From a phage: a stretch of DNA of 64,000 bases. Both the position numbers and the translations under genes were made by a program. The stretch lies in sequence record PZ019085.1. One strand, written 5' to 3'. Position 1 is the first letter of the stretch; each line of letters opens with the position of its first letter. Below are positions 27,254 to 43,294 of the stretch, in pieces. The notes beneath the pieces were generated by a model. It was not told where the DNA came from and made no database searches. It worked only from the letters and a program-made list of their open reading frames with translations.

Positions 27254-28273
27254 ATGAAAATTTTAAATTTAGGTGATTGGCATTTAGGTGTTAAAGCCGA
27301 TGATGAGTGGGTTCAATCCATTCAGTTGGATGGAATTAAGCAGGCGATAGAATATTCTAAGAAAAATGGAATTACTACATGGATTCAATACGGCGATATT
27401 TTTGATGTGCGAAAAGCAATCACGCATAAAACTATGGAGTTCGCACGTGAAATAGTTCAAATGCTTGATGATGCTGGTATTACCCTACATACTGTTGTAG
27501 GAAACCATGATATGCACTTTAAAAATACTTTAACTCCAAACGCTTCTACTGAGCTTTTAGCTAAATATCCTAATGTTAAAGTATATGATAAGCCTACTAC
27601 AGTAGATTTTGACGGATGTTTGATTGATTTAATTCCTTGGATGTGCGAAGAAAATACTGGTGAAATCTTAGAGCACATCAAGACTTCTTCTGCTGCGTAT
27701 TGTGTTGGGCACTGGGAACTGAATGGCTTTTATTTCTATAAAGGAATGAAGTCTCATGGGCTTGAACCTGATTTCTTAAAGACCTATAAACAAGTCTGGT
27801 CTGGCCACTTCCACACAATCTCTGAAGCTGCTAACGTCAAATATATTGGGACACCATGGACCCTTACTGCAGGCGATGAGAACGACCCACGCGGATTCTG
27901 GGTATTTGACACTGATGTTGAACGTATGGAATTTATTCCTAATGAAACAACATGGCATCGACGAATCACTTATCCGTTTAAAGGCAAAATCAATTATTCT
28001 GATTATACTAATCTAGCCGTACGTGTTATAGTATCAGAAATTGATTCAGAGTTGACTAAGTTTGAATCTGAACTTGAAAAAGTAGTTCACTCTCTTCGTA
28101 TGGTTTCTAAAGTTGATAACAGTGTTGAATCTGATGACGACCAGGAAATCGAGATTAAATCACTTCAAGATATCATTAAAGAATATATTGACGCGATTCC
28201 AGATATCTCAGACGAAGACAGAGAAGCGCTGGTCAAATATTCCAACGAACTTTATATTGAGGCAACACAATGA
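27254..28273 (+). CDS. 47: Recombination nuclease subunit gp47 (Mre11/SbcD-like)
   Basis: Phosphoesterase motifs GDWHLG, GDIFD, GNHD. Confidence 0.9.
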   Translation: MKILNLGDWHLGVKADDEWVQSIQLDGIKQAIEYSKKNGITTWIQYGDIFDVRKAITHKTMEFAREIVQMLDDAGITLHTVVGNHDMHFKNTLTPNASTELLAKYPNVKVYDKPTTVDFDGCLIDLIPWMCEENTGEILEHIKTSSAAYCVGHWELNGFYFYKGMKSHGLEPDFLKTYKQVWSGHFHTISEAANVKYIGTPWTLTAGDENDPRGFWVFDTDVERMEFIPNETTWHRRITYPFKGKINYSDYTNLAVRVIVSEIDSELTKFESELEKVVHSLRMVSKVDNSVESDDDQEIEIKSLQDIIKEYIDAIPDISDEDREALVKYSNELYIEATQ

Positions 28274-28527
28274 CTTTAGATGAATTTAACAATGCTGGAC
28301 TCAGGCTTGAAGTTGAAATGGACGTTAAAGATGATGATGGATTCGAGAACACTATCAAGTATTGGATTGAGCCATTACGCGTTGAAGGCAATGAAGTTAA
28401 AGCAGTTCATGTCTGCACCGACTGGGCCATTGAATTTAGCTTTAATATAATGGACAACGATACTCCTGGCTCTATTCTTAAAATGGCCGAAGCGTGTATT
28501 GAGGATGCGTATAATGACGAAGACTGA
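28270..28527 (+). CDS. Hypothetical acidic protein
   Basis: ORF track. Confidence 0.45.
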   Translation: MTLDEFNNAGLRLEVEMDVKDDDGFENTIKYWIEPLRVEGNEVKAVHVCTDWAIEFSFNIMDNDTPGSILKMAEACIEDAYNDED

Positions 28528-28753
28528 CTATGAAATCCATCGTCATGAATTTAGTATTGGTGACGGTTATATTGGTATCGTTGAATGGACCGAGAATTAC
28601 GAGGAATCAACTCCTCGTTTCTTTGGAACAATGTATGTTACCTGTGAGTACGCACCAGGTGTTGTTATGTATGCAGAACTAGATGAATATTTTGCTGATA
28701 GAGATGACATGTTAAAATATGTAGAGGACTTCATTCGAAGAGAATACATATGA
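28499..28753 (+). CDS. Hypothetical protein
   Basis: ORF track. Confidence 0.45.
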   Translation: MRMRIMTKTDYEIHRHEFSIGDGYIGIVEWTENYEESTPRFFGTMYVTCEYAPGVVMYAELDEYFADRDDMLKYVEDFIRREYI

Positions 28754-30438
28754 AATCATTTAAATTAAATCGTGTTCGTTATCAAAATATCATGTCGGTA
28801 GGCGGGAATCCTATTGATATCCAATTAGATAAAGTCCAAAAGACATTAATCACTGGTAAAAATGGTGGTGGTAAATCTACGATGTTAGAAGCCATTACTT
28901 TCGGACTTTTCGGTAAACCATTTCGTGATGTTAAGAAAGGGCAAATCATTAATAGCACGAACAAGAAAGAGCTCTTAGTTGAGCTTTGGATGGAATTCGA
29001 TGGTAAAAAATACTTCATTAAACGCGGCCAAAAACCCAATATTTTCGAAATCTCCGTTGACGGTGTTCGTCTTGATGAATCTGCCAGCAGTCGTGACTTC
29101 CAAGAAGAATTTGAACGTAGCATCGGAATGTCATACGCGTCTTTTAAACAAATCGTTGTGCTTGGGACGGCAGGGTATACCCCTTTCATGGCTCTTAGCA
29201 CCCCTGCTCGTAGAAAACTTGTCGAAGACCTTTTAGAAGTCGGCACACTCGCTGAAATGGATAAAATCAATAAGTCTCAAGTTCGAGAACTTAATTCCCA
29301 GGGACAAGTTCTCGATGCCAAGAAAGACGGTGTTATCCAACAAATTAAGATTTATAACGAGAATATCGAACGTCAAAAGAAATTATCAGGTGATAATGTA
29401 GCGCGTCTACAGAATATGTATGACGACCTAGCCAAAGAAGCTCGTTCATTAAAAGCAGAAATTGAAGAAGCTAACGAGCGACTACTTAATATAGTTCTTG
29501 ACGAAGACCCTACTGAGGCGTTCAACAAGATCGGACAAGAAGCATTCTTGATTAAATCTAAAATCGACTCATATAACAAAGTTATTAAGATGTATCATGA
29601 TGGTGGTACATGTCCTACTTGTGCATCACAGTTGCACCAGGGTGATCCTATTGTCTCTAAGATTACCGATAAGCTTCATGAATGTAATCACTCATTCGAG
29701 CAACTTACATGTCACAGAGATAATCTGAGTGTCCTAGTGGACGAATATAGAGCTAATGTTAAGACTAAACAGGACCTTGCATCTGATATTCGTACCAAGA
29801 AACAAGCATTGATTGCCACTATTGATAAAGCTAAGAAAGTTAAAGCTGCAATAGAACAAGCCTCGGCGGAATTTATCGACCATGCCGATGAGATAGCTTT
29901 GCTTCAAAAAGAACTTGATAAAATCATTAAAACAAAATCGGATATCGTTCTTGAAAAATACCATCGTGGTATTATCACAGATATGCTAAAAGATTCTGGT
30001 ATTAAAGGTGCTATCATTAAAAAATATGTGCCTCTGTTCAACAAGCAGATTAACCATTATCTTAAAATCATGGAAGCTGATTACGTGTTTTCTATTGATG
30101 AAGAATTCAATGAATCTATAAAATCACGTGGTCGTGAAGATTTTAGTTATGCTTCATTTAGTCAAGGTGAAAAGGCACGTATCGATATCGCATTGTTGTT
30201 TACATGGCGAGATATTGCAGAAAAGGTCTCTGGTGTTAAAATCAATACATTAATTATGGACGAAGTCATGGATTCCGCGACTGATTCTGAAGGTATTAAA
30301 GCTATTTCAACAATTCTTAACTCTCTAACCGATGCAAACGTGTTTATAATTAGTCACAGAGACCATGACCCACAAGCTTATGGACAACATCTTCAAATGA
30401 GCAAAGTTGGACGATTTACGGTAATGACTGTTTCATAA
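28750..30438 (+). CDS. 46: Recombination ATPase gp46 (Rad50/SbcC-like)
   Basis: Walker A GKNGGGKST, coiled-coil middle, C-terminal ABC signature region. Confidence 0.9.
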   Translation: MKSFKLNRVRYQNIMSVGGNPIDIQLDKVQKTLITGKNGGGKSTMLEAITFGLFGKPFRDVKKGQIINSTNKKELLVELWMEFDGKKYFIKRGQKPNIFEISVDGVRLDESASSRDFQEEFERSIGMSYASFKQIVVLGTAGYTPFMALSTPARRKLVEDLLEVGTLAEMDKINKSQVRELNSQGQVLDAKKDGVIQQIKIYNENIERQKKLSGDNVARLQNMYDDLAKEARSLKAEIEEANERLLNIVLDEDPTEAFNKIGQEAFLIKSKIDSYNKVIKMYHDGGTCPTCASQLHQGDPIVSKITDKLHECNHSFEQLTCHRDNLSVLVDEYRANVKTKQDLASDIRTKKQALIATIDKAKKVKAAIEQASAEFIDHADEIALLQKELDKIIKTKSDIVLEKYHRGIITDMLKDSGIKGAIIKKYVPLFNKQINHYLKIMEADYVFSIDEEFNESIKSRGREDFSYASFSQGEKARIDIALLFTWRDIAEKVSGVKINTLIMDEVMDSATDSEGIKAISTILNSLTDANVFIISHRDHDPQAYGQHLQMSKVGRFTVMTVS

Positions 30439-33894: not shown

Positions 33895-36606
33895 ATGAAA
33901 GAATTTTACTTAACGGTTGAACAGATTGGTGATTCAATTTTTGAACGTTACATCGATTCTAACGGCCGTGAACGTACTCGTGAAGTAGAATATAAACCAT
34001 CACTGTTTGCTCATTGTCCAGAAAGTCAGGCTACGAAATATTTCGATATCTACGGTAAGCCGTGTACTCGTAAGTTGTTCGCTAATATGCGTGATGCCTC
34101 CCAATGGATTAAACGCATGGAAGATATCGGACTTGAAGCACTTGGCATGGACGATTTCAAATTGGCGTATTTGTCTGACACTTATAACTATGAAATCAAA
34201 TACGACCATACAAAAATTCGTGTGGCCAACTTCGACATCGAAGTAACATCTCCTGACGGGTTCCCTGAGCCGTCACAAGCAAAACATCCGATTGATGCTA
34301 TCACCCATTATGACTCAATTGACGACAGGTTCTACGTATTTGATCTATTGAATTCTCCATATGGTAATGTGGAAGAATGGTCTATTGAAATCGCTGCTAA
34401 GCTTCAAGAACAAGGTGGTGATGAAGTTCCATCTGAAATTATCGATAAAATCATTTATATGCCATTCGATAATGAAAAAGAATTGTTGATGGAATATCTC
34501 AACTTCTGGCAACAGAAAACTCCTGTCATTTTGACTGGATGGAACGTTGAGTCATTTGATATTCCATATGTGTATAACCGAATCAAGAATATTTTTGGCG
34601 AATCTACTGCGAAACGTTTATCACCACATCGTAAAACTCGTGTTAAAGTTATCGAAAACATGTATGGTTCTCGTGAAATCATCACATTGTTTGGTATCTC
34701 TGTTCTTGATTATATTGACCTTTACAAAAAATTCTCTTTCACGAACCAACCGTCATATTCTCTGGATTACATTTCAGAATTTGAATTGAACGTTGGTAAA
34801 CTGAAATATGACGGCCCTATTTCTAAGCTTCGTGAAAGCAATCACCAACGATATATTTCTTATAACATCATCGACGTATATCGTGTATTGCAAATTGACG
34901 CTAAACGCCAGTTCATTAACTTGAGTTTGGACATGGGTTATTATGCTAAAATTCAGATTCAATCTGTGTTCAGTCCAATTAAAACTTGGGATGCTATTAT
35001 TTTTAATAGCCTTAAAGAACAAAACAAGGTGATTCCACAAGGTCGTTCTCACCCGGTTCAACCTTATCCTGGCGCTTTTGTTAAGGAACCTATTCCAAAT
35101 CGATACAAATATGTGATGAGCTTCGACCTCACATCTCTGTATCCAAGTATTATTCGCCAAGTGAATATTAGCCCAGAAACAATAGCAGGAACGTTTAAAG
35201 TAGCTCCATTGCATGATTATATTAACGCTGTTGCTGAACGTCCTTCTGATGTGTACAGTTGCTCTCCTAACGGCATGATGTATTATAAAGACCGTGATGG
35301 TGTAGTTCCAACTGAAATCACTAAAGTCTTTAATCAACGTAAAGAACATAAAGGTTATATGCTTGCAGCTCAACGTAATGGTGAAATAATTAAAGAGGCG
35401 TTGCATAATCCTAATCTTTCTGTTGATGAACCATTAGACGTTGATTATCGTTTTGACTTCACTGACGAGATTAAAGAAAAGATTAAAAAGTTGTCTGCTA
35501 AATCTCTTAATGAAATGTTGTTTAGAGCTCAACGTACTGAAGTTGCAGGTATGACTGCACAAATTAACCGTAAATTGCTTATCAACTCACTTTATGGTGC
35601 ACTTGGCAACGTTTGGTTCCGTTATTATGATTTACGTAATGCTACTGCAATCACAACATTCGGGCAAATGGCTTTACAGTGGATTGAACGTAAAGTTAAT
35701 GAATATCTGAATGAAGTTTGTGGTACAGAAGGCGAAGCTTTCGTTCTATATGGTGATACAGACTCCATTTACGTATCTGCTGATAAAATTATTGATAAGG
35801 TTGGTGAATCTAAATTCCGTGATACCAACCATTGGGTAGACTTCTTAGATAAGTTTGCACGTGAACGTATGGAACCAGCTATTGATAGAGGTTTCCGTGA
35901 AATGTGTGAATACATGAACAATAAACAACACTTAATGTTCATGGACCGAGAAGCTATCGCTGGACCTCCGCTTGGTTCTAAAGGTATTGGCGGATTTTGG
36001 ACAGGTAAGAAACGTTATGCATTAAACGTGTGGGATATGGAAGGAACCAGATACGCTGAACCTAAGCTTAAAATCATGGGTCTCGAAACACAGAAATCTT
36101 CGACCCCTAAAGCAGTACAGAAAGCTCTTAAAGAATGTATTCGTCGTATGCTTCAAGAAGGTGAAGAATCGTTACAAGAATATTTTAAAGAGTTTGAAAA
36201 AGAATTCCGTCAATTGAATTATATTAGCATCGCGTCGGTATCTTCTGCTAATAACATCGCTAAATATGATGTTGGTGGATTCCCTGGTCCTAAATGCCCG
36301 TTCCATATTCGTGGAATTCTAACGTATAACCGGGCTATCAAAGGTAATATCGATGCACCACAAGTTGTAGAAGGTGAAAAAGTATATGTTCTGCCTTTAC
36401 GTGAAGGAAACCCATTCGGTGATAAATGTATCGCATGGCCTTCTGGCACTGAAATCACAGATTTAATTAAAGACGACGTACTTCATTGGATGGACTACAC
36501 TGTTCTCCTTGAGAAGACATTTATTAAACCACTTGAAGGATTCACATCAGCAGCGAAACTCGATTACGAGAAGAAAGCATCTCTGTTCGATATGTTCGAT
36601 TTTTGA
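33895..36606 (+). CDS. 43: DNA polymerase gp43 (family B)
   Basis: 903 aa; exonuclease motifs FDIE and YNIIDV, polymerase motifs DLTSLYPSI and YGDTDS; N-terminus MKEFYLTVEQIGDSIFERYIDSNGRERTREV recalled as RB69-type gp43. Confidence 0.97.
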   Translation: MKEFYLTVEQIGDSIFERYIDSNGRERTREVEYKPSLFAHCPESQATKYFDIYGKPCTRKLFANMRDASQWIKRMEDIGLEALGMDDFKLAYLSDTYNYEIKYDHTKIRVANFDIEVTSPDGFPEPSQAKHPIDAITHYDSIDDRFYVFDLLNSPYGNVEEWSIEIAAKLQEQGGDEVPSEIIDKIIYMPFDNEKELLMEYLNFWQQKTPVILTGWNVESFDIPYVYNRIKNIFGESTAKRLSPHRKTRVKVIENMYGSREIITLFGISVLDYIDLYKKFSFTNQPSYSLDYISEFELNVGKLKYDGPISKLRESNHQRYISYNIIDVYRVLQIDAKRQFINLSLDMGYYAKIQIQSVFSPIKTWDAIIFNSLKEQNKVIPQGRSHPVQPYPGAFVKEPIPNRYKYVMSFDLTSLYPSIIRQVNISPETIAGTFKVAPLHDYINAVAERPSDVYSCSPNGMMYYKDRDGVVPTEITKVFNQRKEHKGYMLAAQRNGEIIKEALHNPNLSVDEPLDVDYRFDFTDEIKEKIKKLSAKSLNEMLFRAQRTEVAGMTAQINRKLLINSLYGALGNVWFRYYDLRNATAITTFGQMALQWIERKVNEYLNEVCGTEGEAFVLYGDTDSIYVSADKIIDKVGESKFRDTNHWVDFLDKFARERMEPAIDRGFREMCEYMNNKQHLMFMDREAIAGPPLGSKGIGGFWTGKKRYALNVWDMEGTRYAEPKLKIMGLETQKSSTPKAVQKALKECIRRMLQEGEESLQEYFKEFEKEFRQLNYISIASVSSANNIAKYDVGGFPGPKCPFHIRGILTYNRAIKGNIDAPQVVEGEKVYVLPLREGNPFGDKCIAWPSGTEITDLIKDDVLHWMDYTVLLEKTFIKPLEGFTSAAKLDYEKKASLFDMFDF

Positions 36607-36646
36607 TATAATGCCAAGGACGGCCAACTAATTAAATGAGAGAAAT

Positions 36647-37282
36647 ATGAAAACTACACCAATCACTATCGCTATTGACGCAATCGTAAAACAAGCTTCA
36701 TCTCTTGCCACTATGGCTAAAGTAATTAGTCAAAACCCTGCCCGATATAATGCTATTCTTGAAACTCTTCGTCGCCCTGGACTGAGTAATTATGAAAGCC
36801 GAGTAATTATTACAGGTGTTGGTAAGAATGCTAATATTGCAACTAAAGCTTCTGAGACATTTGCTTCATTAGGTATTCCTAGCATGTATTTGAACACTGG
36901 GCATTATTCTCATGGTGACGCAGGATTTATTGCACCTAATGATGTATTAGTTCACATCAGTCGTTCTGGTAAGACTGAAGAAATGATAGGTGTTGCTAAA
37001 CATCTTCGTATGATTCGTCCTCAGGTTAAACAGATTCTGTTACATTGTAACCCTGACATTCCACAAGAATACGAAGCTCTTTTTGATTATACGTTCTGTA
37101 CCGGTATCGCGGTAGAAGTTGACGAGAACTCTTTAGCTCCGACGATGTCTACTACATTGTTGTTAGCGCTTATCGATACGTTCGCTATCAACCTTTCATC
37201 TGAACGTGGATTTACCTCTAATGATTTCCTTAAGTTCCATCCAGGCGGTGCACTAGGTGCCATGTTACGAGGCGAGCAATGA
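36647..37282 (+). CDS. SIS-domain sugar-phosphate isomerase (KdsD/GutQ/GmhA-like)
   Basis: ITGVGKNANIATKASETFASLGIPSMYLNTG...HGD...VLVHISRSGKTEEM matches the SIS-domain pattern of arabinose-5-phosphate or phosphoheptose isomerases; no CBS domain. Confidence 0.8.
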   Translation: MKTTPITIAIDAIVKQASSLATMAKVISQNPARYNAILETLRRPGLSNYESRVIITGVGKNANIATKASETFASLGIPSMYLNTGHYSHGDAGFIAPNDVLVHISRSGKTEEMIGVAKHLRMIRPQVKQILLHCNPDIPQEYEALFDYTFCTGIAVEVDENSLAPTMSTTLLLALIDTFAINLSSERGFTSNDFLKFHPGGALGAMLRGEQ

Positions 37283-37422
37283 AAGCAATAACAATAGGAC
37301 TTTTACTATTGATGCTTGTCATGACTATCTATTGGAGCTTAACGGCTCCAGTAATGATTCCAACACTTGTAATTGGATGGATTATGATTGGACTACAAGC
37401 AAAGTATGAATGCTTTAACTAG
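37279..37422 (+). CDS. Possible 47-aa two-TM membrane peptide
   Basis: MKAITIGLLLLMLVMTIYWSLTAPVMIPTLVIGWIMIGLQAKYECFN; ATGA-type overlap with the SIS gene stop. Confidence 0.3.
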   Translation: MKAITIGLLLLMLVMTIYWSLTAPVMIPTLVIGWIMIGLQAKYECFN

Positions 37423-37463
37423 AATAGTGTACAATACTCCTACTTACCAATGAGGACCACAAC

Positions 37464-39149
37464 ATGAAAAAAGCTGTTATTCTTGGTGCTGGACTGGCAA
37501 CTCGTTTGTATCCAATAACGCATCATATTCCTAAGGTGCTTGTTAACTATAAACAAGACACTATTCTGAGCAATTTGTATACAATTTATTCTGACCTTGG
37601 CGCAGATGAAATTATTGTAGTAGTTCATTCAAAATTTGCTGAAACTGTTCGAGCTTATTGTGAGCAAGAAGGGTTCAATGTGACTATTCGTACAGTTGAT
37701 GAAGCATACGGATCTGCTTATGCTCTTGCTAAATTACACAAAGATTTAGACGGCCATAATGTAATTGTTAACTGGTGCGATATTATTCCTGATTTTGGTT
37801 CATGGTCTTGGAATGTTAACGCAATCTATGTTAAGGGTGACGAATGTCGGTATAATTTCGACGGTGAAAATATCACTAACGTAGGTTCAACAGGTGGTAA
37901 TGTTGTAGGAATTTATCAGTTCAAAGACTGGGAATTCTATATGGGTTCTACCGATGAGGAAATTCATGAATACTGCAAAGGACGTGATTTCGTAGAATTC
38001 CTTTACAGCGGCGCATTCAATAAATCAGAGCTTATGAATATAATTGATTTAGGTGATATGCCTAAACTTGAAAAAGCTCATGAAGTTCGTGAACTTAATC
38101 GTAGTTTTAATGCAGTTGAAATTGGTGAAGAAACTGTAACTAAATTCGCATTAACCGAACAGGGCCGAGCTCTTCAGAAAGATGAGATTTCATGGTATCT
38201 TAAAGTGAAATCAGATTCAGTTCCTCAGTTAGTTTCTGTTAATGAAAATAACTTTGAAATGGAACGCATTAAAGGTAAGCCGGCATTTGAATATATTAAA
38301 TCCAAATCAAGTCTTGCTCGTCCACAAATTGTTGATGCAATTTTAGATGCACTGAAATTCAGCACAGACACTTATTTTGTAAGTCCTGAAACTGTTCGTC
38401 GTGATTTCACTAAAGAATTCTATACGAAAGTTATTGATCGTTGTGAAAGTATTCAACCATTGATTGATTCATTTGGTAAAATCACACATGTGAACTACAC
38501 TAAGATTGGACGTCTGAAGCCAATGCTGAAACAAGCTTTAGAACACCTTATTCGTTATCATAACCGTTCTCAGGGACAGTACTCTGTTATTCATGGTGAC
38601 CCTAACTTCAGTAATACTATGATTACTGATAACGGCGAAGTCAAGTTTATCGACCCTCGTGGATATTTTGGTGAAACCAAGATTTACGGGCCAAAATTGT
38701 ATGACGAAGCTAAAGTGCTTTATGCTGTTTCAGGTTATGATGAATTCAATGCTAATCCGACCTGGGGACAGTTTACTATTGATGAAACAACTTGTAATGT
38801 GACTATTAACATCAATCCATTAATTTACAAATATGGAAAGATGAGTTCGTTTAACGAGTATCATCATTTGGCGGTGGCAATTATCTGGATTGCATTGGGT
38901 GGTTATTTCAAGAATAATCCACTTAAAGCGGTAGCCGCATATTATAAAGGTATGGAACTTCTGACTAAGCAATTACGTAACATGGGCCGTGTACTTCAGG
39001 ACGGCTCTATTAGTTATGACGTAGCAGAACCTGTAACGGCTACTCTGATTACAAAAAATCCTGGTAAATGGGTACTAACTGATAAAGAAACTGGTGTTTC
39101 TTATCGTCCAATCGGTGGCGATATCACTCATCAATGGGAACGAATCTAA
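37464..39149 (+). CDS. Bifunctional sugar-1-phosphate nucleotidylyltransferase / APH-like sugar kinase
   Basis: N-terminal ILGAGLATRL (RmlA/GlmU-type NTP-transferase G-x-G-T-R motif); C-terminal HGDPNFSNTMI ... FIDPRG (phosphotransferase/choline-kinase-like catalytic loop). Confidence 0.75.
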   Translation: MKKAVILGAGLATRLYPITHHIPKVLVNYKQDTILSNLYTIYSDLGADEIIVVVHSKFAETVRAYCEQEGFNVTIRTVDEAYGSAYALAKLHKDLDGHNVIVNWCDIIPDFGSWSWNVNAIYVKGDECRYNFDGENITNVGSTGGNVVGIYQFKDWEFYMGSTDEEIHEYCKGRDFVEFLYSGAFNKSELMNIIDLGDMPKLEKAHEVRELNRSFNAVEIGEETVTKFALTEQGRALQKDEISWYLKVKSDSVPQLVSVNENNFEMERIKGKPAFEYIKSKSSLARPQIVDAILDALKFSTDTYFVSPETVRRDFTKEFYTKVIDRCESIQPLIDSFGKITHVNYTKIGRLKPMLKQALEHLIRYHNRSQGQYSVIHGDPNFSNTMITDNGEVKFIDPRGYFGETKIYGPKLYDEAKVLYAVSGYDEFNANPTWGQFTIDETTCNVTININPLIYKYGKMSSFNEYHHLAVAIIWIALGGYFKNNPLKAVAAYYKGMELLTKQLRNMGRVLQDGSISYDVAEPVTATLITKNPGKWVLTDKETGVSYRPIGGDITHQWERI

Positions 39150-39535
39150 TGCATCGTGTAGAAAACATGCTTAATCTTTGTTTTGATGTCGACGATTGTA
39201 TAACAGAGTGGAATAACAATCGTGATTACGTGAACTTCAAGCCAGACGTCGAAATGGTGTCTGCCATTAATGCCCTGTATGATGCAGGGCATACCATAAC
39301 GCTTTACACTGCTCGTGGTATGAAGTCAGTAGGTCCTGGTCGTATAGCAATTGACATTCTCCCAAGTCTGATTCAGAACTTGGCAAACATTGGCTTGAAG
39401 TACCATAATTTGCTAACACATAAACCAGTATATGATTGGATTATCGACGACAAAGCTATGCGTCCCGACGAATTCAAAGCTCTTATGAATAAAGGCGAAT
39501 TCGAAACATTTAAATCATATAAACCGAATCTATAA
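39149..39535 (+). CDS. HAD-superfamily phosphatase-like protein
   Basis: FDVDDCIT near the N-terminus, TARG, WIIDDKA; size typical of KdsC/GmhB-type small HAD phosphatases. Confidence 0.55.
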   Translation: MHRVENMLNLCFDVDDCITEWNNNRDYVNFKPDVEMVSAINALYDAGHTITLYTARGMKSVGPGRIAIDILPSLIQNLANIGLKYHNLLTHKPVYDWIIDDKAMRPDEFKALMNKGEFETFKSYKPNL

Positions 39536-39589
39536 TAATTTAAGTAAGACCTGCAAAAACCATCGCATAAATTAACGCGAGATGCAAAA

Positions 39590-40750
39590 ATGAATACTTT
39601 TAAAATCGGAACGAATTTTGATTTAGCTCTTCTTGATAAAATCGTAGAGCTCAATAAAACTTATCCTAATAGCTTGATAAACGAAGTATACGGCTCTACA
39701 AGAGAAATGGCTTTTGTAGCAGCCAGACCTGATTTTAGGCTTCCTGACGTTGACAAAAAGATGTTAGAAGATTACGTTAAACGTTGTAATGAATTAGGTA
39801 TTTGCTTTAACTATACACTCAACACGATAAATCCCGGTTCAAAAAGAGAACTAGTTGAGTGGAAGAAGAAAGCTATTCAGGATTATGTTCAGTATCTTTG
39901 GTCAATAGGCGTATGGCGTATTACTATCGCTAACCCTGTTGTTATGGAAATTGTTCGTGAAGTCAATAAAGACATTGAGATTGAAGTTTCAACAATTCTA
40001 CATGTCGATGCTGTAACTCAAATCAAATACTTACATGACCAATACAATATCAAAAAGGTCTGCTGTGGAATTCATAAGAACCGTTCAGTTTCTTTCCTGA
40101 AGCGTGCAGCAGAGTTTTGCAATAAGAACAATATAATATTTGAAGTTCTTGTAAATGAGTTCTGTTCTAATGCTGGTAAAGGGTATACAACACATTGTAG
40201 CTATCGTGACTCTTGCTATATTTTCCATAGTACTGATGTTACAGCTGATGATGCTAAATCCTTAAACGGGTATCCAATGCAACACTGCATTAAAGCTCGT
40301 GATACAGACCCATTTAACTGGTTGAGAACTCGTTTTGTTCGTCCTCAAGATTTGAAACTTTATAATGATATTGGTATCACTCAATTCAAAGTTTCAGGAC
40401 GTACAGGTAGCACAGACTACATTTTGAAAGTTCTTGAAGCATACGCTTCTGAAAAGTTTGAAGGTAATTTGTTAGAACTGTGGAAGCCTTTAGAGACTAT
40501 TTTCACTCTTGAAAACGAAACTGAGTTTTCACATACAGTAAATATTGAAACCTCTTTGTTAGATGGCTTTTTAGAAAAAAGGTGGTTCAGGCATCCAGAT
40601 TTCGATTGTGCTAATGAAATCTGTGGGACGACGTGTACATATTGTGAAAGATATTATAAACGTCAGTTATCTAAAAACGGGTTAGCAGAAAACTCTATAT
40701 CTATTATTGATATAACTAACTCTGATGACGCTTTGAGGTACCCAGAATGA
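39590..40750 (+). CDS. Cys-rich hypothetical enzyme in the sugar island
   Basis: 386 aa with multiple conserved-looking Cys clusters (CANEICGTTCTYC, EFCSNAGKGYTTHCSY); fold not assignable by eye. Confidence 0.55.
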   Translation: MNTFKIGTNFDLALLDKIVELNKTYPNSLINEVYGSTREMAFVAARPDFRLPDVDKKMLEDYVKRCNELGICFNYTLNTINPGSKRELVEWKKKAIQDYVQYLWSIGVWRITIANPVVMEIVREVNKDIEIEVSTILHVDAVTQIKYLHDQYNIKKVCCGIHKNRSVSFLKRAAEFCNKNNIIFEVLVNEFCSNAGKGYTTHCSYRDSCYIFHSTDVTADDAKSLNGYPMQHCIKARDTDPFNWLRTRFVRPQDLKLYNDIGITQFKVSGRTGSTDYILKVLEAYASEKFEGNLLELWKPLETIFTLENETEFSHTVNIETSLLDGFLEKRWFRHPDFDCANEICGTTCTYCERYYKRQLSKNGLAENSISIIDITNSDDALRYPE

Positions 40751-41030
40751 TTTCTAGAAAAACTTTTAACCACCAACTTAATGAAGAGATTTTGACTATG
40801 AAACTGAACACTAACGAACAAATTCTTAAAAAGGCCCTTATGGGGGCCTGTTTGAAACCAAAGCGGCTAAAGTGATTAAAGAACCTGTTCAATTGGAATA
40901 CTACGCTGATGCATTTCTTCATAGTGTTCTTGGAAGTATCGATGCTGAAGCTTTACGGTATATCAACACTGCCAAGAAATTCAAATAAGCTTTACGAATC
41001 GAGTATATAATAAATTGTATTGAGGTAAAC

Positions 41031-41747
41031 ATGGGAAAACATAACACAATGAAATATATCAAAGCCGCAGATTTTCAAACCGCATTTAAAGCAGTCAATC
41101 GTGAAATTTTAGAAAACCCGGAATTCGTAACTGATTCTCGTATTGGACGTTGTAATGAAATTGGGTCTATGACAGTAGTTGTTGACACTCCATCGTCATT
41201 CAAAATGACCGACCCACGTATTAACCGCATCTCTTATGAATATGCCGAAGACTTCTGGAAGTTTATGATTTCTGGTGGTACTGATGCAGAAGAAGCGTTT
41301 AAGGCATATCCTAATGTCGCTAAATTTATTTCTAAACCAAAATCGGATGCTTTGCCTGCAAACTTCAACACTTTCTATGGTCCTCGCATTGCGGCCCAAT
41401 TACCAACTCTTCTAAAAGAACTTAAAGAGAAACCTAACTCTCGAAGAGTTGTGTTCCAAATTCTAGAAAGTTCAGATCAGGCTTTGCTTGATTCGGACGA
41501 AACACTTGAATATCCATGTACTGACTCAGTGACTTATTATATTCGTGATGGTAAGCTTTATACCCACTGTCATATGCGTTCTCAGAACTGTGCTGTTGTT
41601 ATGCAGTTGGATTTTTATCTCCAAGGAAAATTACTTCATTATATCGCTAACGAATGCGGTGTAGAAGTAGGTGATTATACTCATACCATGGTAAGTGCCC
41701 ATGTGTTTGAACGTGATTTTGATTATGTTAAAGGATTCCTTGACTAA
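41031..41747 (+). CDS. 42: dCMP hydroxymethylase (thymidylate-synthase superfamily)
   Basis: PCTDSVTYYIRDGK ... MRSQNCAV resembles the catalytic Cys region of T4 gp42; syntenic position. Confidence 0.75.
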   Translation: MGKHNTMKYIKAADFQTAFKAVNREILENPEFVTDSRIGRCNEIGSMTVVVDTPSSFKMTDPRINRISYEYAEDFWKFMISGGTDAEEAFKAYPNVAKFISKPKSDALPANFNTFYGPRIAAQLPTLLKELKEKPNSRRVVFQILESSDQALLDSDETLEYPCTDSVTYYIRDGKLYTHCHMRSQNCAVVMQLDFYLQGKLLHYIANECGVEVGDYTHTMVSAHVFERDFDYVKGFLD

Positions 41748-42646
41748 TGGCTATTTTCCGCGTACCTATCTTGAGTATGCGGTCTTATGAAACTGGTCAG
41801 TATGCTATCCTTAAGGATGGCAACTTCCAACTTCATTTGCACCGTGCTAATCCAGGCGATGTGATTACATATCCACGTAATGCATCTGATATTAAAGAAT
41901 GTGAACGTCTTTTCCCGGAATTTAAGTTTGTTCCATTATGGTATAAAGATAACGCGTATAACACTCGTAAATATTTCTGGTCTGAAAATGAATTTGTGGT
42001 TGATTCATTAATTGCTTATTATGATTGTGATTTTCTAATCACAGATATCACTGGATATGATGGCGCTTTTGACGTAGAATTCAATTTCAATATCACTGCA
42101 GACCCTAATAAACCACGTTTTTATATTGATGAATTCTTAAAAACCGACATGTTGTCTGTTAATCGTTCACTTCAAACTACTGTGTTGAATGAACGTCAAA
42201 AAGAAGTGCTGGTTAACGCAGGTGCAGATGGTAATAAGATTATCGTAACGCAGAAAGTTATACGTCCTTCCGTCATGCAGCGTCTTGTAGGTGATTTGGC
42301 TCCTATTCATCTAGATGGTATTTTTCATCCATTTCGAATTAGTGACCCATGCTATCGTTTTGAACAAGTTGTTGAATGCGCAATTCAATTAGGTCAACCG
42401 CTTTATATAACTGATCCAAATAATAGTTTCGACAGAAATAAGTATCCTGAAGAAGCGCTGATTCGAATTTTTAATCCAACTAAAACTGAGTACTATCAAA
42501 TTCTTAAAGGACGTCCGAAGATTCAATATTTCGAAAATCCTGAAGAAGTATTCCATCCAGGTCTTGGTGAGTTCATCTACTTTAATGCTTTAATTTCTTC
42601 ACCGTATAATATACCTAAATACGAAGATGTCGTAATCGAGGAATAA
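41747..42646 (+). CDS. Hypothetical protein at the position of T4 beta-glucosyltransferase
   Basis: 299 aa; no match to T4 beta-gt noticed. Confidence 0.55.
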   Translation: MAIFRVPILSMRSYETGQYAILKDGNFQLHLHRANPGDVITYPRNASDIKECERLFPEFKFVPLWYKDNAYNTRKYFWSENEFVVDSLIAYYDCDFLITDITGYDGAFDVEFNFNITADPNKPRFYIDEFLKTDMLSVNRSLQTTVLNERQKEVLVNAGADGNKIIVTQKVIRPSVMQRLVGDLAPIHLDGIFHPFRISDPCYRFEQVVECAIQLGQPLYITDPNNSFDRNKYPEEALIRIFNPTKTEYYQILKGRPKIQYFENPEEVFHPGLGEFIYFNALISSPYNIPKYEDVVIEE

Positions 42647-42647
42647 A

Positions 42648-43196
42648 ATGGCTAAAATTATTTTAGTAGACGGCCCGGATAATGCTGGTAAAACAACTTT
42701 CATTAATGACATAATGGAAATTAGTGAAAGATATGTAAAGATTGATTTCCCTAAACGAACAGTTGATGGACGTTTCGATGTTAAGTCTCGAAATGAAGTT
42801 GGCTGTTTCGAAACGATGTTGAATTATTTAGACCCTACTAAGATTTATCTGTTAGACCGTGGATATATTAGTAACTGGGTTTATGGACGTATTCGACAAG
42901 ATGTGGACTCGGTTCTTGACGTTTATGAACAGGATTATGTTCGTCTTTGCCAAAACCATGATGTGTTCACAATTATTTTAACACGTAACGAAATGACTGA
43001 AAGTTTTGAAGACGACCTTATTACTTTGTCTTCATTCGGTTTTAATACAGTCATTTCATATTTTGAAGAGTTTGCAATTCATAACAAAATCCAAACGTAT
43101 CAATTACTTAATCATGATGGTGCTAACAAAGTTATAGGATTTAATGCAAGCGAACGTAATTATTTGATTACAGAAATCATTAAATGGGCTCGTTAA
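42648..43196 (+). CDS. P-loop nucleotide kinase (thymidylate/dNMP kinase-like)
   Basis: Walker A DGPDNAGKTT and LLDRGYIS (DRY-like motif of the TMPK fold). Confidence 0.55.
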   Translation: MAKIILVDGPDNAGKTTFINDIMEISERYVKIDFPKRTVDGRFDVKSRNEVGCFETMLNYLDPTKIYLLDRGYISNWVYGRIRQDVDSVLDVYEQDYVRLCQNHDVFTIILTRNEMTESFEDDLITLSSFGFNTVISYFEEFAIHNKIQTYQLLNHDGANKVIGFNASERNYLITEIIKWAR

Positions 43197-43294
43197 GAGC
43201 CATTTAAAGTTTTAAATGCTGTATAACCCTTAGTATATAATCATCTTATCCTTTAAACATGAGTAAAATATAATGATGCCTATGGAAAAATACA

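Follow-up and report, generated by a model that had tools for sequence, protein, structure and literature searches.

We identified the 561-aa protein encoded at positions 37464-39149 (+) of the window, the whole 64,000-nt stretch of DNA that was analysed, as a probable two-function enzyme in a UDP-D-arabinofuranose pathway that the phage itself encodes, i.e. the ortholog of RB69 gp52:53 and the counterpart of AfhE of phage HY126 (probability about 85%). The protein is a single ORF running from ATG to TAA at exactly these coordinates, with the ribosome-binding site GAGGA upstream. The evidence from our own analysis consists of the folds of the two halves, the conservation of their active sites, the 98.9% identity with the RB69 protein, the conserved cassette, and four-domain Rosetta-stone fusions. 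For the two activities, for the bisphosphate intermediate and for UDP as carrier we rely on the literature, namely on He et al. (Nat Chem Biol 2026) as relayed by Lee et al. (PMC13326640). A preliminary description had proposed that an RmlA-type nucleotidyltransferase and a kinase of the APH/choline-kinase fold are joined in one chain, and both folds together with the conserved active sites bear this out.

Overall, the window matched the closest Mosigvirus genomes with 97.7-98.2% identity across the cluster; judged by sequence, it is a Mosigvirus, an RB69-like T-even phage. The RB69 protein is known as ORF53_52c (gp52:53), and a frameshift in its GenBank record has been documented (PMC6024577). 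We therefore took out the extra C of NC_004928 before alignment. With this frameshift-corrected sequence, 555 of the 561 residues were identical (98.9%), leaving six substitutions, and the two genes share a common genomic position. By these sequence criteria the protein is the Mosigvirus ortholog of the published RB69 protein, which was proposed in 2018 as a candidate for UDP-arabinose synthesis (PMC6024577). In the collection that we searched, 374 phage records belong to the family. The fusion had been called unusual, and in the sense of undescribed this does not hold, since it is RB69 gp52:53, discussed since 2018, and belongs to a family of that size. The identity was 57% to the DLP3 homolog (gp82) and 54% to the Thanatos homolog TH1_060; the group formed by these proteins and RB69 gp52:53 shares the two-domain architecture, the cassette, and a length of approximately 545-573 aa. 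Among the matches listed, E. coli phage homologs were either at least 95% or about 43% identical to our protein. Lee et al. (NAR 2026) equated RB69 gp52:53 with AfhE of HY126 (PMC13326640), and our naming of AfhE as the counterpart rests on this statement; an HY126 homolog was absent among 100 sampled matches. The enzyme is thus already known: it has been in print since 2018, and its counterpart has reportedly been characterised biochemically.

The N-terminal half was recognisable at several levels. For residues 3-99, Pfam NTP_transferase gave a score of 39.1 bits (cutoff 21.2; E 8.4e-10). When the single sequence was compared with the PDB, the top match was LicC (1jyk, E 2e-5), while the family profile ranked HddC (6jq8/5xhw, E 2e-13) ahead of LicC (7e-12). 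The AF2 model of the full-length protein had a pLDDT of 93.9 and a pTM of 0.91, and all of the top 50 Foldseek matches to it were sugar-1-phosphate nucleotidyltransferases (RmlA, HddC, MurU, LicC, and GMPPB), aligned over about 240 columns. The expected G-x-G-T-R-L signature is present at the N-terminus as a close variant, G8-A-G-L-A-T-R-L15 (AGLATRLYPIT), and a strict match is missing. For conservation, we used 51 homologs with identities down to 29%. G10, R14, and K24 were invariant in all 51, as was D106. Together, these results confirmed the N-terminal half as a sugar-1-phosphate nucleotidyltransferase of the RmlA/HddC/MurU type.

The C-terminal half needed structure comparison, because sequence-only searches of the PDB failed to reveal its fold: a search with the single full-length sequence found no kinase, and the best kinase match of the family profile was only RIO2, at E 0.06. 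On the Pfam level, all matches of this half stayed below their cutoffs (Fructosamin_kin 17.1 bits vs 22.4; EcKL 16.2; RIO1 16.1), and PF01636 (APH) gave no match in the protein, its gathering threshold not being reached. The Pfam APH cutoff of 23.2 was exceeded by two homologs, with 28.6 bits for P0082 and 25.6 bits for P0056. As the transferase half had filled the full-length Foldseek top 50, residues 206-561 were modelled separately. The resulting model (pLDDT 94.0) matched APH(2'')-IIa (3ham) with E 3.5e-7, and all of its top 50 matches were APH, choline kinase, or macrolide kinase. A C-terminal region without a kinase fold had been named as the result that would speak against the fusion; the structure prediction returned a kinase fold. 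The HGD...N loop and the downstream IDP motif, both described earlier, were located as HGDPNFSN at residues 377-384 and IDP at residues 396-398. K227, E241, G378, D379, N384, and D397 were present in 51 of 51 homologs and H377 in 50 of 51. The motif H-x-D-x4-N alone is insufficient, because a second copy at residues 92-99, inside the transferase half, is an unconserved chance occurrence; HGDPNFSN is significant because it is conserved and lies in a kinase fold. A beta-rich tail of about 50 aa follows the kinase core. We consider the APH/choline-kinase fold of this half confirmed at the level of the structural model, which places it in the APH superfamily by fold, not in the Pfam family by score.

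The gene lies in a cassette whose members are listed in the following table.

Features of the arabinosylation cassette and the domains of the fusion protein (positions in the window)
Feature	Position	Strand	Basis
SIS-domain arabinose-5-phosphate isomerase, KdsD/GutQ-like, RB69 gp55 equivalent	36647..37282	+	Pfam, NCBIfam, PHROG
47-aa hydrophobic ORF between isomerase and fusion gene	37279..37422	+	translation MKAITIGLLLLMLVMTIYWSLTAPVMIPTLVIGWIMIGLQAKYECFN
Sugar-1-phosphate nucleotidyltransferase domain, aa 1-205	37464..38078	+	Pfam, Foldseek, family profile, invariant residues
APH/choline-kinase-fold kinase domain, aa 206-561	38079..39149	+	predicted fold, conserved catalytic residues
HAD-superfamily phosphatase, RB69 gp51 equivalent, HY126 AfhF analogue	39134..39535	+	NCBIfam, motif I
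Peptidase-U32-family protein, RB69 gp50 equivalent	39590..40750	+	Pfam Peptidase_U32 E 7e-11
RB69 gp49 / Bas46_0143 equivalent (79-aa ORF there), frameshifted here	40747..40988	+	DNA alignment
Thymidylate-synthase homolog, RB69 gp48 equivalent	41031..41747	+	Pfam Thymidylat_synt E 2e-15
Putative first DNA arabinosyltransferase, 299 aa, RB69 gp46:47 equivalent	41747..42646	+	PHROG 3891
Thymidylate-kinase-like nucleotide kinase, RB69 gp45 equivalent	42648..43196	+	PHROG 761 E 8e-45; PMC13326640 Table 1

Upstream, the isomerase matched Pfam SIS (E 8e-10) and PHROG 5670 'arabinose 5-phosphate isomerase' (E 2e-116). It lacks the CBS domains, and for this reason its NCBIfam matches to KpsF/GutQ (E 9e-32) and to KdsD (E 4e-30) fell short of the cutoffs for full-length members. 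For RB69 gp55, the conversion of ribulose-5-P to D-arabinose-5-P has been proposed (PMC13326640). The small hydrophobic ORF that follows has annotated counterparts in the corresponding place of Bas46 (bas46_0147) and of Klebsiella phage KLB31, the latter with the annotation 'contains transmembrane domain'. Downstream, the start of the phosphatase gene overlaps the stop of the fusion gene by 16 nt. The phosphatase matched NCBIfam TIGR01689 (capsule biosynthesis phosphatase, E 4e-13), with a weak HAD-IIIA match, and carries motif I as D18-x-D20. The gp49 equivalent is broken into a first ORF at 40747-40875 and a second one, in another frame, at 40872-40988, by a +2 change in a G-run (GGGGG at 40842-40846 vs GGG in RB69 and Bas46) within ATGGGGGCCTG, which starts at 40840. 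From its position in the RB69 cluster, the thymidylate-synthase homolog corresponds to gp48, the 5-hydroxy-dCMP synthase that was shown experimentally to make the acceptor base (PMC13326640). The putative arabinosyltransferase, which would consume the UDP-Araf, is encoded by one ORF here and is split in the RB69 record; RB69 gp46:47 is GT-B-like by structure (PMC13326640 Table 1). In every case a SIS isomerase was tied to modules of this type, and in most cases so was a HAD phosphatase or, in its place, a small ORF. The gene order recurs in an uncultured T4-like phage with a homolog just 36% identical to our protein. Scanning the cluster for promoters and terminators gave counts at or below the shuffled expectation.

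The gene for the Peptidase-U32-family protein was found to be very highly conserved, with 222 phage records that are all at least 80% identical. It is dispensable for arabinosylation in phages that lack it. The protein showed a weak match to UbiU, and its similarity to UbiU/UbiV is too weak for a reliable alignment of the Fe-S cysteines. RB69 gp50 is labelled only as 'Sugar or heterocycle reductase' (PMC13326640 Table 1). In one related phage genus, for which a single record was examined, the U32 gene adjoins a chorismate mutase gene. The Mosigvirus 79-aa ORF was considered as a diverged chorismate mutase and rejected, with no Pfam match and no BLASTP similarity to the genuine KLB31 enzyme. 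The observation on the U32 gene looks more novel than the fusion enzyme, and it may be new.

With these components, the pathway that we propose would proceed in five steps. The phage SIS isomerase would turn host ribulose-5-P into D-arabinose-5-P. With ATP, the C-terminal kinase domain would then add a phosphate to the anomeric C1-OH of Araf-5-P, yielding Araf-1,5-bisphosphate, and the separate HAD phosphatase would strip the 5-phosphate to leave Araf-1-P. The N-terminal RmlA/HddC/MurU-like domain would combine Araf-1-P with UTP to form UDP-Araf, which phage GT-B transferases would use as donor to arabinosylate 5-hydroxycytosine in the phage DNA, a shield against host nucleases. In Lee et al., which cites He et al., HY126 AfhE is described as an Ara-5-P kinase and UDP-D-Ara pyrophosphorylase: it converts Ara-5-P to Ara-1,5-bisphosphate, the phosphatase AfhF yields Ara-1-P, and uridylylation comes after (PMC13326640). 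The same text assigns the conversion of Araf-1,5-P2 to Araf-1-P to the HAD phosphatase, so that in the route as reported there a third enzyme acts between the two reactions of the fusion protein. This agrees with the earlier suggestions that the fusion makes an NDP-sugar in a phage and that arabinose is among the candidate sugars, the former matching the pyrophosphorylase activity and the latter the substrate reported for AfhE. As to the product, DNA of RB69 and Mosigvirus contains mono- and di-arabinosyl-5-hydroxycytosine (PMC13326640; PMC13390438). The working donor of the DLP3 transferases in vitro was UDP-Araf, and single DLP3 enzymes gave no product from UDP-Arap and none from UDP-Araf. 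Purified Thanatos TH1_060 formed no NDP-sugar from xylose-1-P and any NTP, a substrate that has the wrong sugar and ring form (PMC12838424).

The pathway offers a reason why two non-consecutive activities are paired. We infer that the 5-phosphate is kept until C1 is phosphorylated and that this prevents closure of the pyranose ring; the route would therefore deliver a furanosyl nucleotide without a mutase. Such furanosyl delivery via the retained 5-phosphate would explain the pairing of kinase and transferase.

A different order of reactions deserves consideration, in which free D-arabinose, made from Ara-5-P by the HAD enzyme or scavenged as a pentose, is phosphorylated at C1 and passed on to the transferase in consecutive steps. 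Consecutive steps are the commoner reason for a fusion, and the anomeric salvage routes of the AmgK/MurU and NahK type use the same two folds; MurU (4y7u) and NahK (4ocj) are indeed among the structural neighbours of our protein. Table 1 of Lee et al. also fits this order, contradicting the paper's own text: gp51 'dephosphorylates Araf5p to Ara', and the entry for the C-terminal domain is 'Phosphorylates Ara to Araf1p' (PMC13326640). By contrast, the text describes the in-vitro reactions of HY126 AfhE and AfhF as Ara-5-P to Ara-1,5-P2 to Ara-1-P. The working donor is UDP-Araf, yet free D-arabinose is mainly pyranose. In every case the module comes with a linked, dedicated Ara-5-P isomerase, which may even be fused to it, and therefore the input of the module should be the 5-phosphate and no scavenged sugar. 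The order of kinase, phosphatase, and transferase also has a precedent in the heptose pathway. We thus regard consecutive salvage as unlikely. The suggestion of a salvage-type route starting from a free sugar gives way to synthesis de novo from ribulose-5-P, to which the isomerase and phosphatase neighbours, the four-domain fusions, and the AfhE/AfhF literature all point.

Two further readings of the protein were weighed. The top single-sequence PDB match, LicC, is a CTP:phosphocholine cytidylyltransferase, some database homologs bear the automatic name 'choline kinase', and bacterial fusions of the LicCA type exist. This could indicate a choline or ethanolamine kinase joined to a phospho-alcohol cytidylyltransferase, whose CDP-alcohol product would have nothing to do with the sugar on the DNA. 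Nevertheless, the family profile favours HddC, a sugar-1-P guanylyltransferase, over LicC, the module is obligatorily linked and even fused to an arabinose-5-P isomerase, and the phage DNA carries arabinose, not phosphocholine, which makes this reading highly improbable. Similarly, the RB69 paper of 2018 (PMC6024577) and the Thanatos paper (PMC12838424) considered a GT-A-type glycosyltransferase that moves a sugar to DNA or a nucleotide, both groups being drawn by the CDD annotation 'glycosyltransferase family A superfamily'. The Thanatos protein, our 54% identical homolog, is essential for phage propagation, as this idea would allow (PMC12838424). On the other hand, all 50 top structural matches were nucleotidyltransferases, and the G-x-G-x-x-T-R-L/K signature is conserved. 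Scores against phage glycosyltransferase HMMs were poor (PMC6024577), TH1_060 transferred no xylose to DNA, dCMP, or dCTP (PMC12838424), and separate GT-B transferases have been identified, among them DLP3 gp76 and gp77, for which joint action was shown. We give a glycosyltransferase hardly any weight, and retain the bifunctional enzyme of UDP-D-arabinofuranose synthesis.

Beside the two-domain proteins, we found relatives of approximately 890-955 aa with 30-35% identity to our protein, in which HAD, SIS, nucleotidyltransferase, and kinase domains follow one another in one chain. At least one of them is encoded on a contig of 103 kb, where RNA polymerase Rpb2 and Rpb10 and a MutS-HNH gene are its neighbours, and this contig resembles giant-virus DNA (Nucleocytoviricota). 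A slime-mould transcriptome contains a further one, and yet another is found beside a carbohydrate sulfotransferase gene. Possibly, although we would bet against it, the module reaches beyond phage DNA modification and these chains form a complete route from ribulose-5-P to NDP-arabinofuranose. If they make NDP-D-Araf, they would mark an unrecognised pathway to D-arabinofuranose glycans in giant viruses or their eukaryotic hosts, and they would be the cleanest sign that the kinase, the phosphatase, and the transferase work together as a unit. The occurrence of four-domain fusions in apparent giant-virus sequence may be new.

The enzyme would give T-even-like phages a sugar nucleotide that is not among the products of E. 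coli. Arabinose on every phage cytosine blocks restriction enzymes and CRISPR nucleases and alters which defence systems see the phage. Its finding in this Mosigvirus genome is a confirmation and no discovery, the biology of the enzyme being in the literature (2018, 2025, 2026).

The known systems resemble the phage enzyme in different respects. AmgK/MurU and the NahK-type enzymes share its pair of folds, an APH-like anomeric kinase and an RmlA-like uridylyltransferase. They perform true salvage on free sugars, as separate proteins and without isomerase or phosphatase, whereas the phage module is linked to a SIS isomerase. Unlike AmgK/MurU, the phage protein acts on a sugar 5-phosphate, with a phosphatase between its two steps, according to Lee et al. 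(PMC13326640). 5-Methylthioribose kinase (MtnK) is a stand-alone enzyme of methionine salvage without a transferase partner, and in structure it is not specifically closer to our kinase domain than choline kinases are. Fkp/FKGP (L-fucokinase/GDP-fucose pyrophosphorylase) and LicCA combine a pyrophosphorylase and a kinase in a single chain and yield an activated, nucleotide-linked product. Neither needs an intervening phosphatase; Fkp, unlike the phage protein, salvages a free sugar with a GHMP-fold kinase, and LicCA acts on choline, whereas our protein is found in the context of an arabinose-5-P isomerase and DNA-modification genes.

A parallel in pathway logic is provided by the heptose pathways, GmhA/HldE/GmhB of E. 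coli, leading to ADP-heptose, and HddA/GmhB/HddC, leading to GDP-heptose. Their logic is identical to that of the phage route: a SIS isomerase, an anomeric kinase on a terminally phosphorylated sugar, a HAD phosphatase, and a nucleotidyltransferase. HldE, too, unites the kinase and the transferase (steps 2 and 4) in one protein, with the phosphatase separate. The phage protein thus functions like HldE without being a member of its family. HldE joins a PfkB/ribokinase-fold kinase and a cytidylyltransferase-like transferase in reversed domain order, while the phage protein joins an APH/choline-kinase-fold kinase and an RmlA-like transferase. Among solved proteins, HddC is nearest in sequence to its N-terminal domain (E 2e-13), but HddA is a GHMP kinase. 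The phage route further differs in using a pentofuranose and a UDP carrier where both of these pathways use heptose. It represents a convergent pathway design, in which the kinase, phosphatase, and transferase logic of heptose activation is carried out with unrelated folds.

The gene under study is ORF53_52c of phage RB69, and the bifunctional fusion is already known. Thomas et al. 2018 (PMC6024577) recognized that a sequencing error of one base divides a single protein of 561 residues into ORFs 053c and 052c of the RB69 GenBank record, and proposed that this protein synthesizes UDP-arabinose together with the upstream SIS protein. When RB69 28094-29780 was aligned to the target gene, one extra C was found in RB69, without which 555 of the 561 residues were identical. 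In the window, one ORF of 299 aa encodes the putative first arabinosyltransferase, which appears as ORF046c and ORF047c in the RB69 GenBank record; that it is unsplit here agrees with Lee et al. (PMC13326640), who attributed the RB69 split to a sequencing error.

Lee et al. (NAR 2026; PMC13326640) reported mono- and poly-arabinosylated 5-hydroxycytosine in the DNA of RB69 and of Acinetobacter phage DLP3, and showed that 5-hydroxy-dCMP is made by the thymidylate-synthase homolog whose equivalent here is the ThyA-like gene. The protein, their gp52:53, was modelled as a nucleotidyltransferase plus kinase, and the DLP3 transferases accepted UDP-arabinofuranose (UDP-Araf) as their donor in vitro. 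Independently, 5-ara-dC and 5-ara-ara-dC were shown in a Mosigvirus of the Durham collection (PMC13390438). The Thanatos homolog TH1_060, 54% identical to the target protein, is essential to phage propagation; it was inactive on xylose-1-P, a substrate uninformative for Araf-1-P (PMC12838424).

According to the ORF map, the target gene lies within a T4-like replication module (gp46-like, gp45 clamp, clamp loader, RegA and DNA polymerase, then UvsX and gp41). Every ORF of at least 250 aa in window 1-64000 is on the + strand, and an ARAGORN scan of the same range for tRNA and tmRNA genes gave none. A megablast search with window 36600-43200 returned 152 phage records with at least 80% coverage; the best matches (97.7-98.2% identity) were all Mosigvirus (RB69-like), for example Shf125875, Bas46 and Bas47. 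In the BASEL annotation of Bas46, the target gene is a "putative enzyme involved in UDP-arabinose biosynthesis". The cassette consists of genes for an SIS isomerase, the NT-kinase (the target protein), an HAD phosphatase, a ThyA-like protein, a glycosyltransferase and a nucleotide kinase.

Features of the arabinosylation cassette (window coordinates)
Feature	Coordinates	Strand	Remark
SIS isomerase	36647-37282		
47-aa very hydrophobic ORF, between isomerase and NT-kinase	37279-37422	+	same position annotated in Bas46 and KLB31 (Kanagawavirus)
NT-kinase (target)	37464-39149	+	exact ORF limits, 561 codons plus stop; GAGGA 5' of it
Second H-x-D-x4-N match (HKDLDGHN)	37737-37760		aa 92-99, transferase half
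HAD phosphatase	39134-39535		overlaps NT-kinase gene by 16 nt; D18-x-D20 motif
U32-family gene	39590-40750	+	
Broken 79-codon ORF, between U32 and ThyA-like genes	40747-40988	+	+2 insertion in G-run 40842-40846
ThyA-like gene	41031-41747		
Putative first arabinosyltransferase	41747-42646	+	

For the N-terminal half, Pfam NTP_transferase scored 39.1 bits (cutoff 21.2), and NCBIfam gave partial matches to many sugar-1-phosphate nucleotidyltransferases, MurU and HddC among them. Among PDB sequences, phmmer matched LicC (E 2e-5), and a profile of the 51-sequence family matched HddC (E 2e-13). The G-x-G-T-R-L signature that had been described for this half is present as a close variant, the literal residues being G8-A-G-L-A-T-R-L15. 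Across the alignment of 51 homologs, with identity down to 29%, G10, R14, K24 and D106 are invariant.

The C-terminal half gave only below-threshold matches to kinase families with sequence profiles; its predicted HGD...N loop and downstream IDP were found exactly, as HGDPNFSN at aa 377-384 and IDP at aa 396-398. An H-x-D-x4-N pattern alone is weak kinase evidence, since the copy at aa 92-99 is unconserved in the 51 homologs and begins with Y at residue 92 in RB69; judged from the alignment, that copy is a chance match. The motif at aa 377-384 is significant because it is conserved across the homologs: all 51 have K227, E241, G378, D379, N384 and D397, and 50 have H377.

The full-length AlphaFold2 model, built on the 51-homolog alignment, reached a pLDDT of 93.9 and a pTM of 0.91. 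Its best 50 Foldseek matches in the PDB were all nucleotidyltransferases (RmlA, HddC, MurU, LicC, GMPPB, IPCT), which masked the kinase half; therefore, aa 206-561 were modelled separately (pLDDT 94.0). The best 50 matches of this model were all aminoglycoside, macrolide, choline or ethanolamine kinases, including 3ham, APH(2'')-IIa, at E 3.5e-7, so that the kinase fold claimed in the preliminary description stands. The 3ham match was also given for the RB69 protein by Lee et al. (PMC13326640) and is reproduced here. In the AlphaFold2 model, beta strand 224-229 carries the invariant Lys and the next helix (232-247) the Glu, while HGD...N follows strand 373-375 and IDP follows strand 393-395; as modelled, this is the canonical protein-kinase-like arrangement.

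The U32-family gene, considered together with L006 4483-5894, is the most interesting loose end of the cluster. It occurred in 222 phage records, all with at least 80% identity. In Thanatos, U32 is 82% identical (Thanatos-2 record) versus 54% for the NT-kinase (Thanatos-1 record), and in Klebsiella phages the values are 86% versus 43.5%; by these identities, the U32 gene has diverged far less than the genes around it. Acinetobacter phages are absent from the ten host genera listed for U32, although the NT-kinase is present in 57 Acinetobacter phages and the ThyA-like gene in 57. Among Escherichia phage records, 177 matched the NT-kinase versus 137 for U32; about 40 are without a U32 match, and the distribution therefore does not divide cleanly into aerobes and anaerobes. 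Between its U32 and ThyA-like genes, Klebsiella phage KLB31 has a 79-aa ORF that encodes a genuine chorismate mutase (Pfam CM_2, 38.5 bits, cutoff 27). Prephenate, which chorismate mutase produces, is needed for the reactions of the U32 proteins RlhA and TrhP. According to PMC5727448 and PMC6599085, these two proteins are required for the formation of ho5C and ho5U, pyrimidines hydroxylated at C5, in RNA. All this is only suggestive of a prephenate-dependent, O2-independent route to 5-hydroxycytosine. The similarity of phage U32 to UbiU/UbiV is very weak, and the protein lacks the canonical U32 segment that contains Cys; there is instead a C-terminal C340-x4-C-x3-C-x-Y-C352 cluster. In Lee et al. 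(PMC13326640), the protein appears only as a table entry, "Sugar or heterocycle reductase", and is not discussed.

In the window, the 79-codon Mosigvirus ORF at the corresponding position is broken into two short ORFs in different frames, with GGGGG here versus GGG in RB69 (gp49) and Bas46; the cause is an error of sequencing or assembly, or else the ORF is a real pseudogene. In its intact form, the Mosigvirus 79-aa protein had no Pfam match and no similarity to the KLB31 enzyme, and we rejected it as a chorismate mutase. The 47-aa ORF probably encodes a single-pass membrane peptide.

The fusion had been called unusual but is not rare: tblastn found it in 374 phage records, with hosts including Escherichia, Acinetobacter, Klebsiella, Vibrio, Shigella, Serratia, Shewanella, Tenacibaculum and Synechococcus, and it forms its own family, PHROG 4098. 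Among the matches listed, the identity of E. coli phage homologs to the target was 95% or more in some and about 43% in the others. An uncultured T4-like phage (L009 6391-11073) carries, between DNA polymerase and UvsX, SIS, an NT-kinase only 36% identical to the target, a small ORF, a ThyA-like gene, an about 296-aa protein and a dNMP-kinase-like gene; the U32 gene is absent from this locus. In Tenacibaculum phage PTm5 (AP019525 121024-123959), less than 1 kb separates the NT-kinase (27% identity) from a ThyA-like gene.

More distant relatives (P0084, P0088, P0089, P0091 and P0092; 30-35% identity) are single chains of about 890-955 aa with the order HAD-SIS-nucleotidyltransferase-kinase, which, from their domain content, would take ribulose-5-P all the way to NDP-arabinose within a single polypeptide. 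P0084 (L002 8001-10781) is on a giant-virus-like 103-kb contig, next to genes for RNA polymerase Rpb2 and Rpb10 and for MutS-HNH; P0091 stems, in several isoforms, from the transcriptome of the slime mould Ceratiomyxa fruticulosa; and P0092 adjoins a Sulfotransfer_2 gene. There are also shorter versions of about 786-790 aa, two of which JGI names 'mannose-6-phosphate isomerase-like protein'; one of two scanned had a sub-threshold mannose-6-P-isomerase (cupin) match near its C-terminus.

These fused chains imply that the three neighbouring phage genes form one pathway whose input sugar is a 5-phosphate. Lee et al. equate gp52:53 with AfhE of phage HY126, to which they ascribe, after He et al., Ara-5-P kinase and UDP-D-Ara pyrophosphorylase activities. 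The route reported in the text of PMC13326640, citing He et al., runs from ribulose-5-P through Araf-5-P, Araf-1,5-P2 and Araf-1-P to UDP-Araf, and AfhF, the HAD protein, is described there, after He et al., as a Mg2+-dependent phosphatase acting on Araf-1,5-P2. The preliminary description was correct in its observation of the fusion, but its salvage-type route, which implies that the sugar is free and the two steps consecutive, is not supported: conservation of the isomerase and phosphatase, the four-domain chains and the bisphosphate intermediate reported in that text all point the other way. A salvage order, in which the phosphatase makes Ara and the kinase makes Ara-1-P, does appear in Table 1 of Lee et al. 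(PMC13326640), whose entries read 'dephosphorylates Araf5p to Ara' for the phosphatase and 'Phosphorylates Ara to Araf1p' for the kinase domain. However, in their text the same authors go from Ara-5-P to Ara-1,5-P2 and on to Ara-1-P, and the table, which conflicts with this, seems to be left over from an earlier model. Because of this conflict, we retain the salvage order as a minor rival, although the neighbouring isomerase and phosphatase and the four-domain chains make it very improbable.

For the bisphosphate route, we infer that the 5-phosphate would block pyranose ring closure, and that phosphorylation of C1 before removal of the 5-phosphate would lock the sugar as a furanose with no mutase needed. 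Such locking would explain why a kinase and a transferase that are not consecutive are fused, with the phosphatase acting between them. The nucleotide carrier and the kinase substrate of the target protein are predicted assignments, going beyond sequence or fold rank.

The same arrangement is found in the E. coli heptose enzyme HldE with GmhA and GmhB, where a kinase and a transferase are also fused; however, the kinase and transferase folds of HldE and the target protein are unrelated. Among proteins of solved structure, HddC, from the GDP-heptose route, is nearest in sequence to the N-terminal domain.
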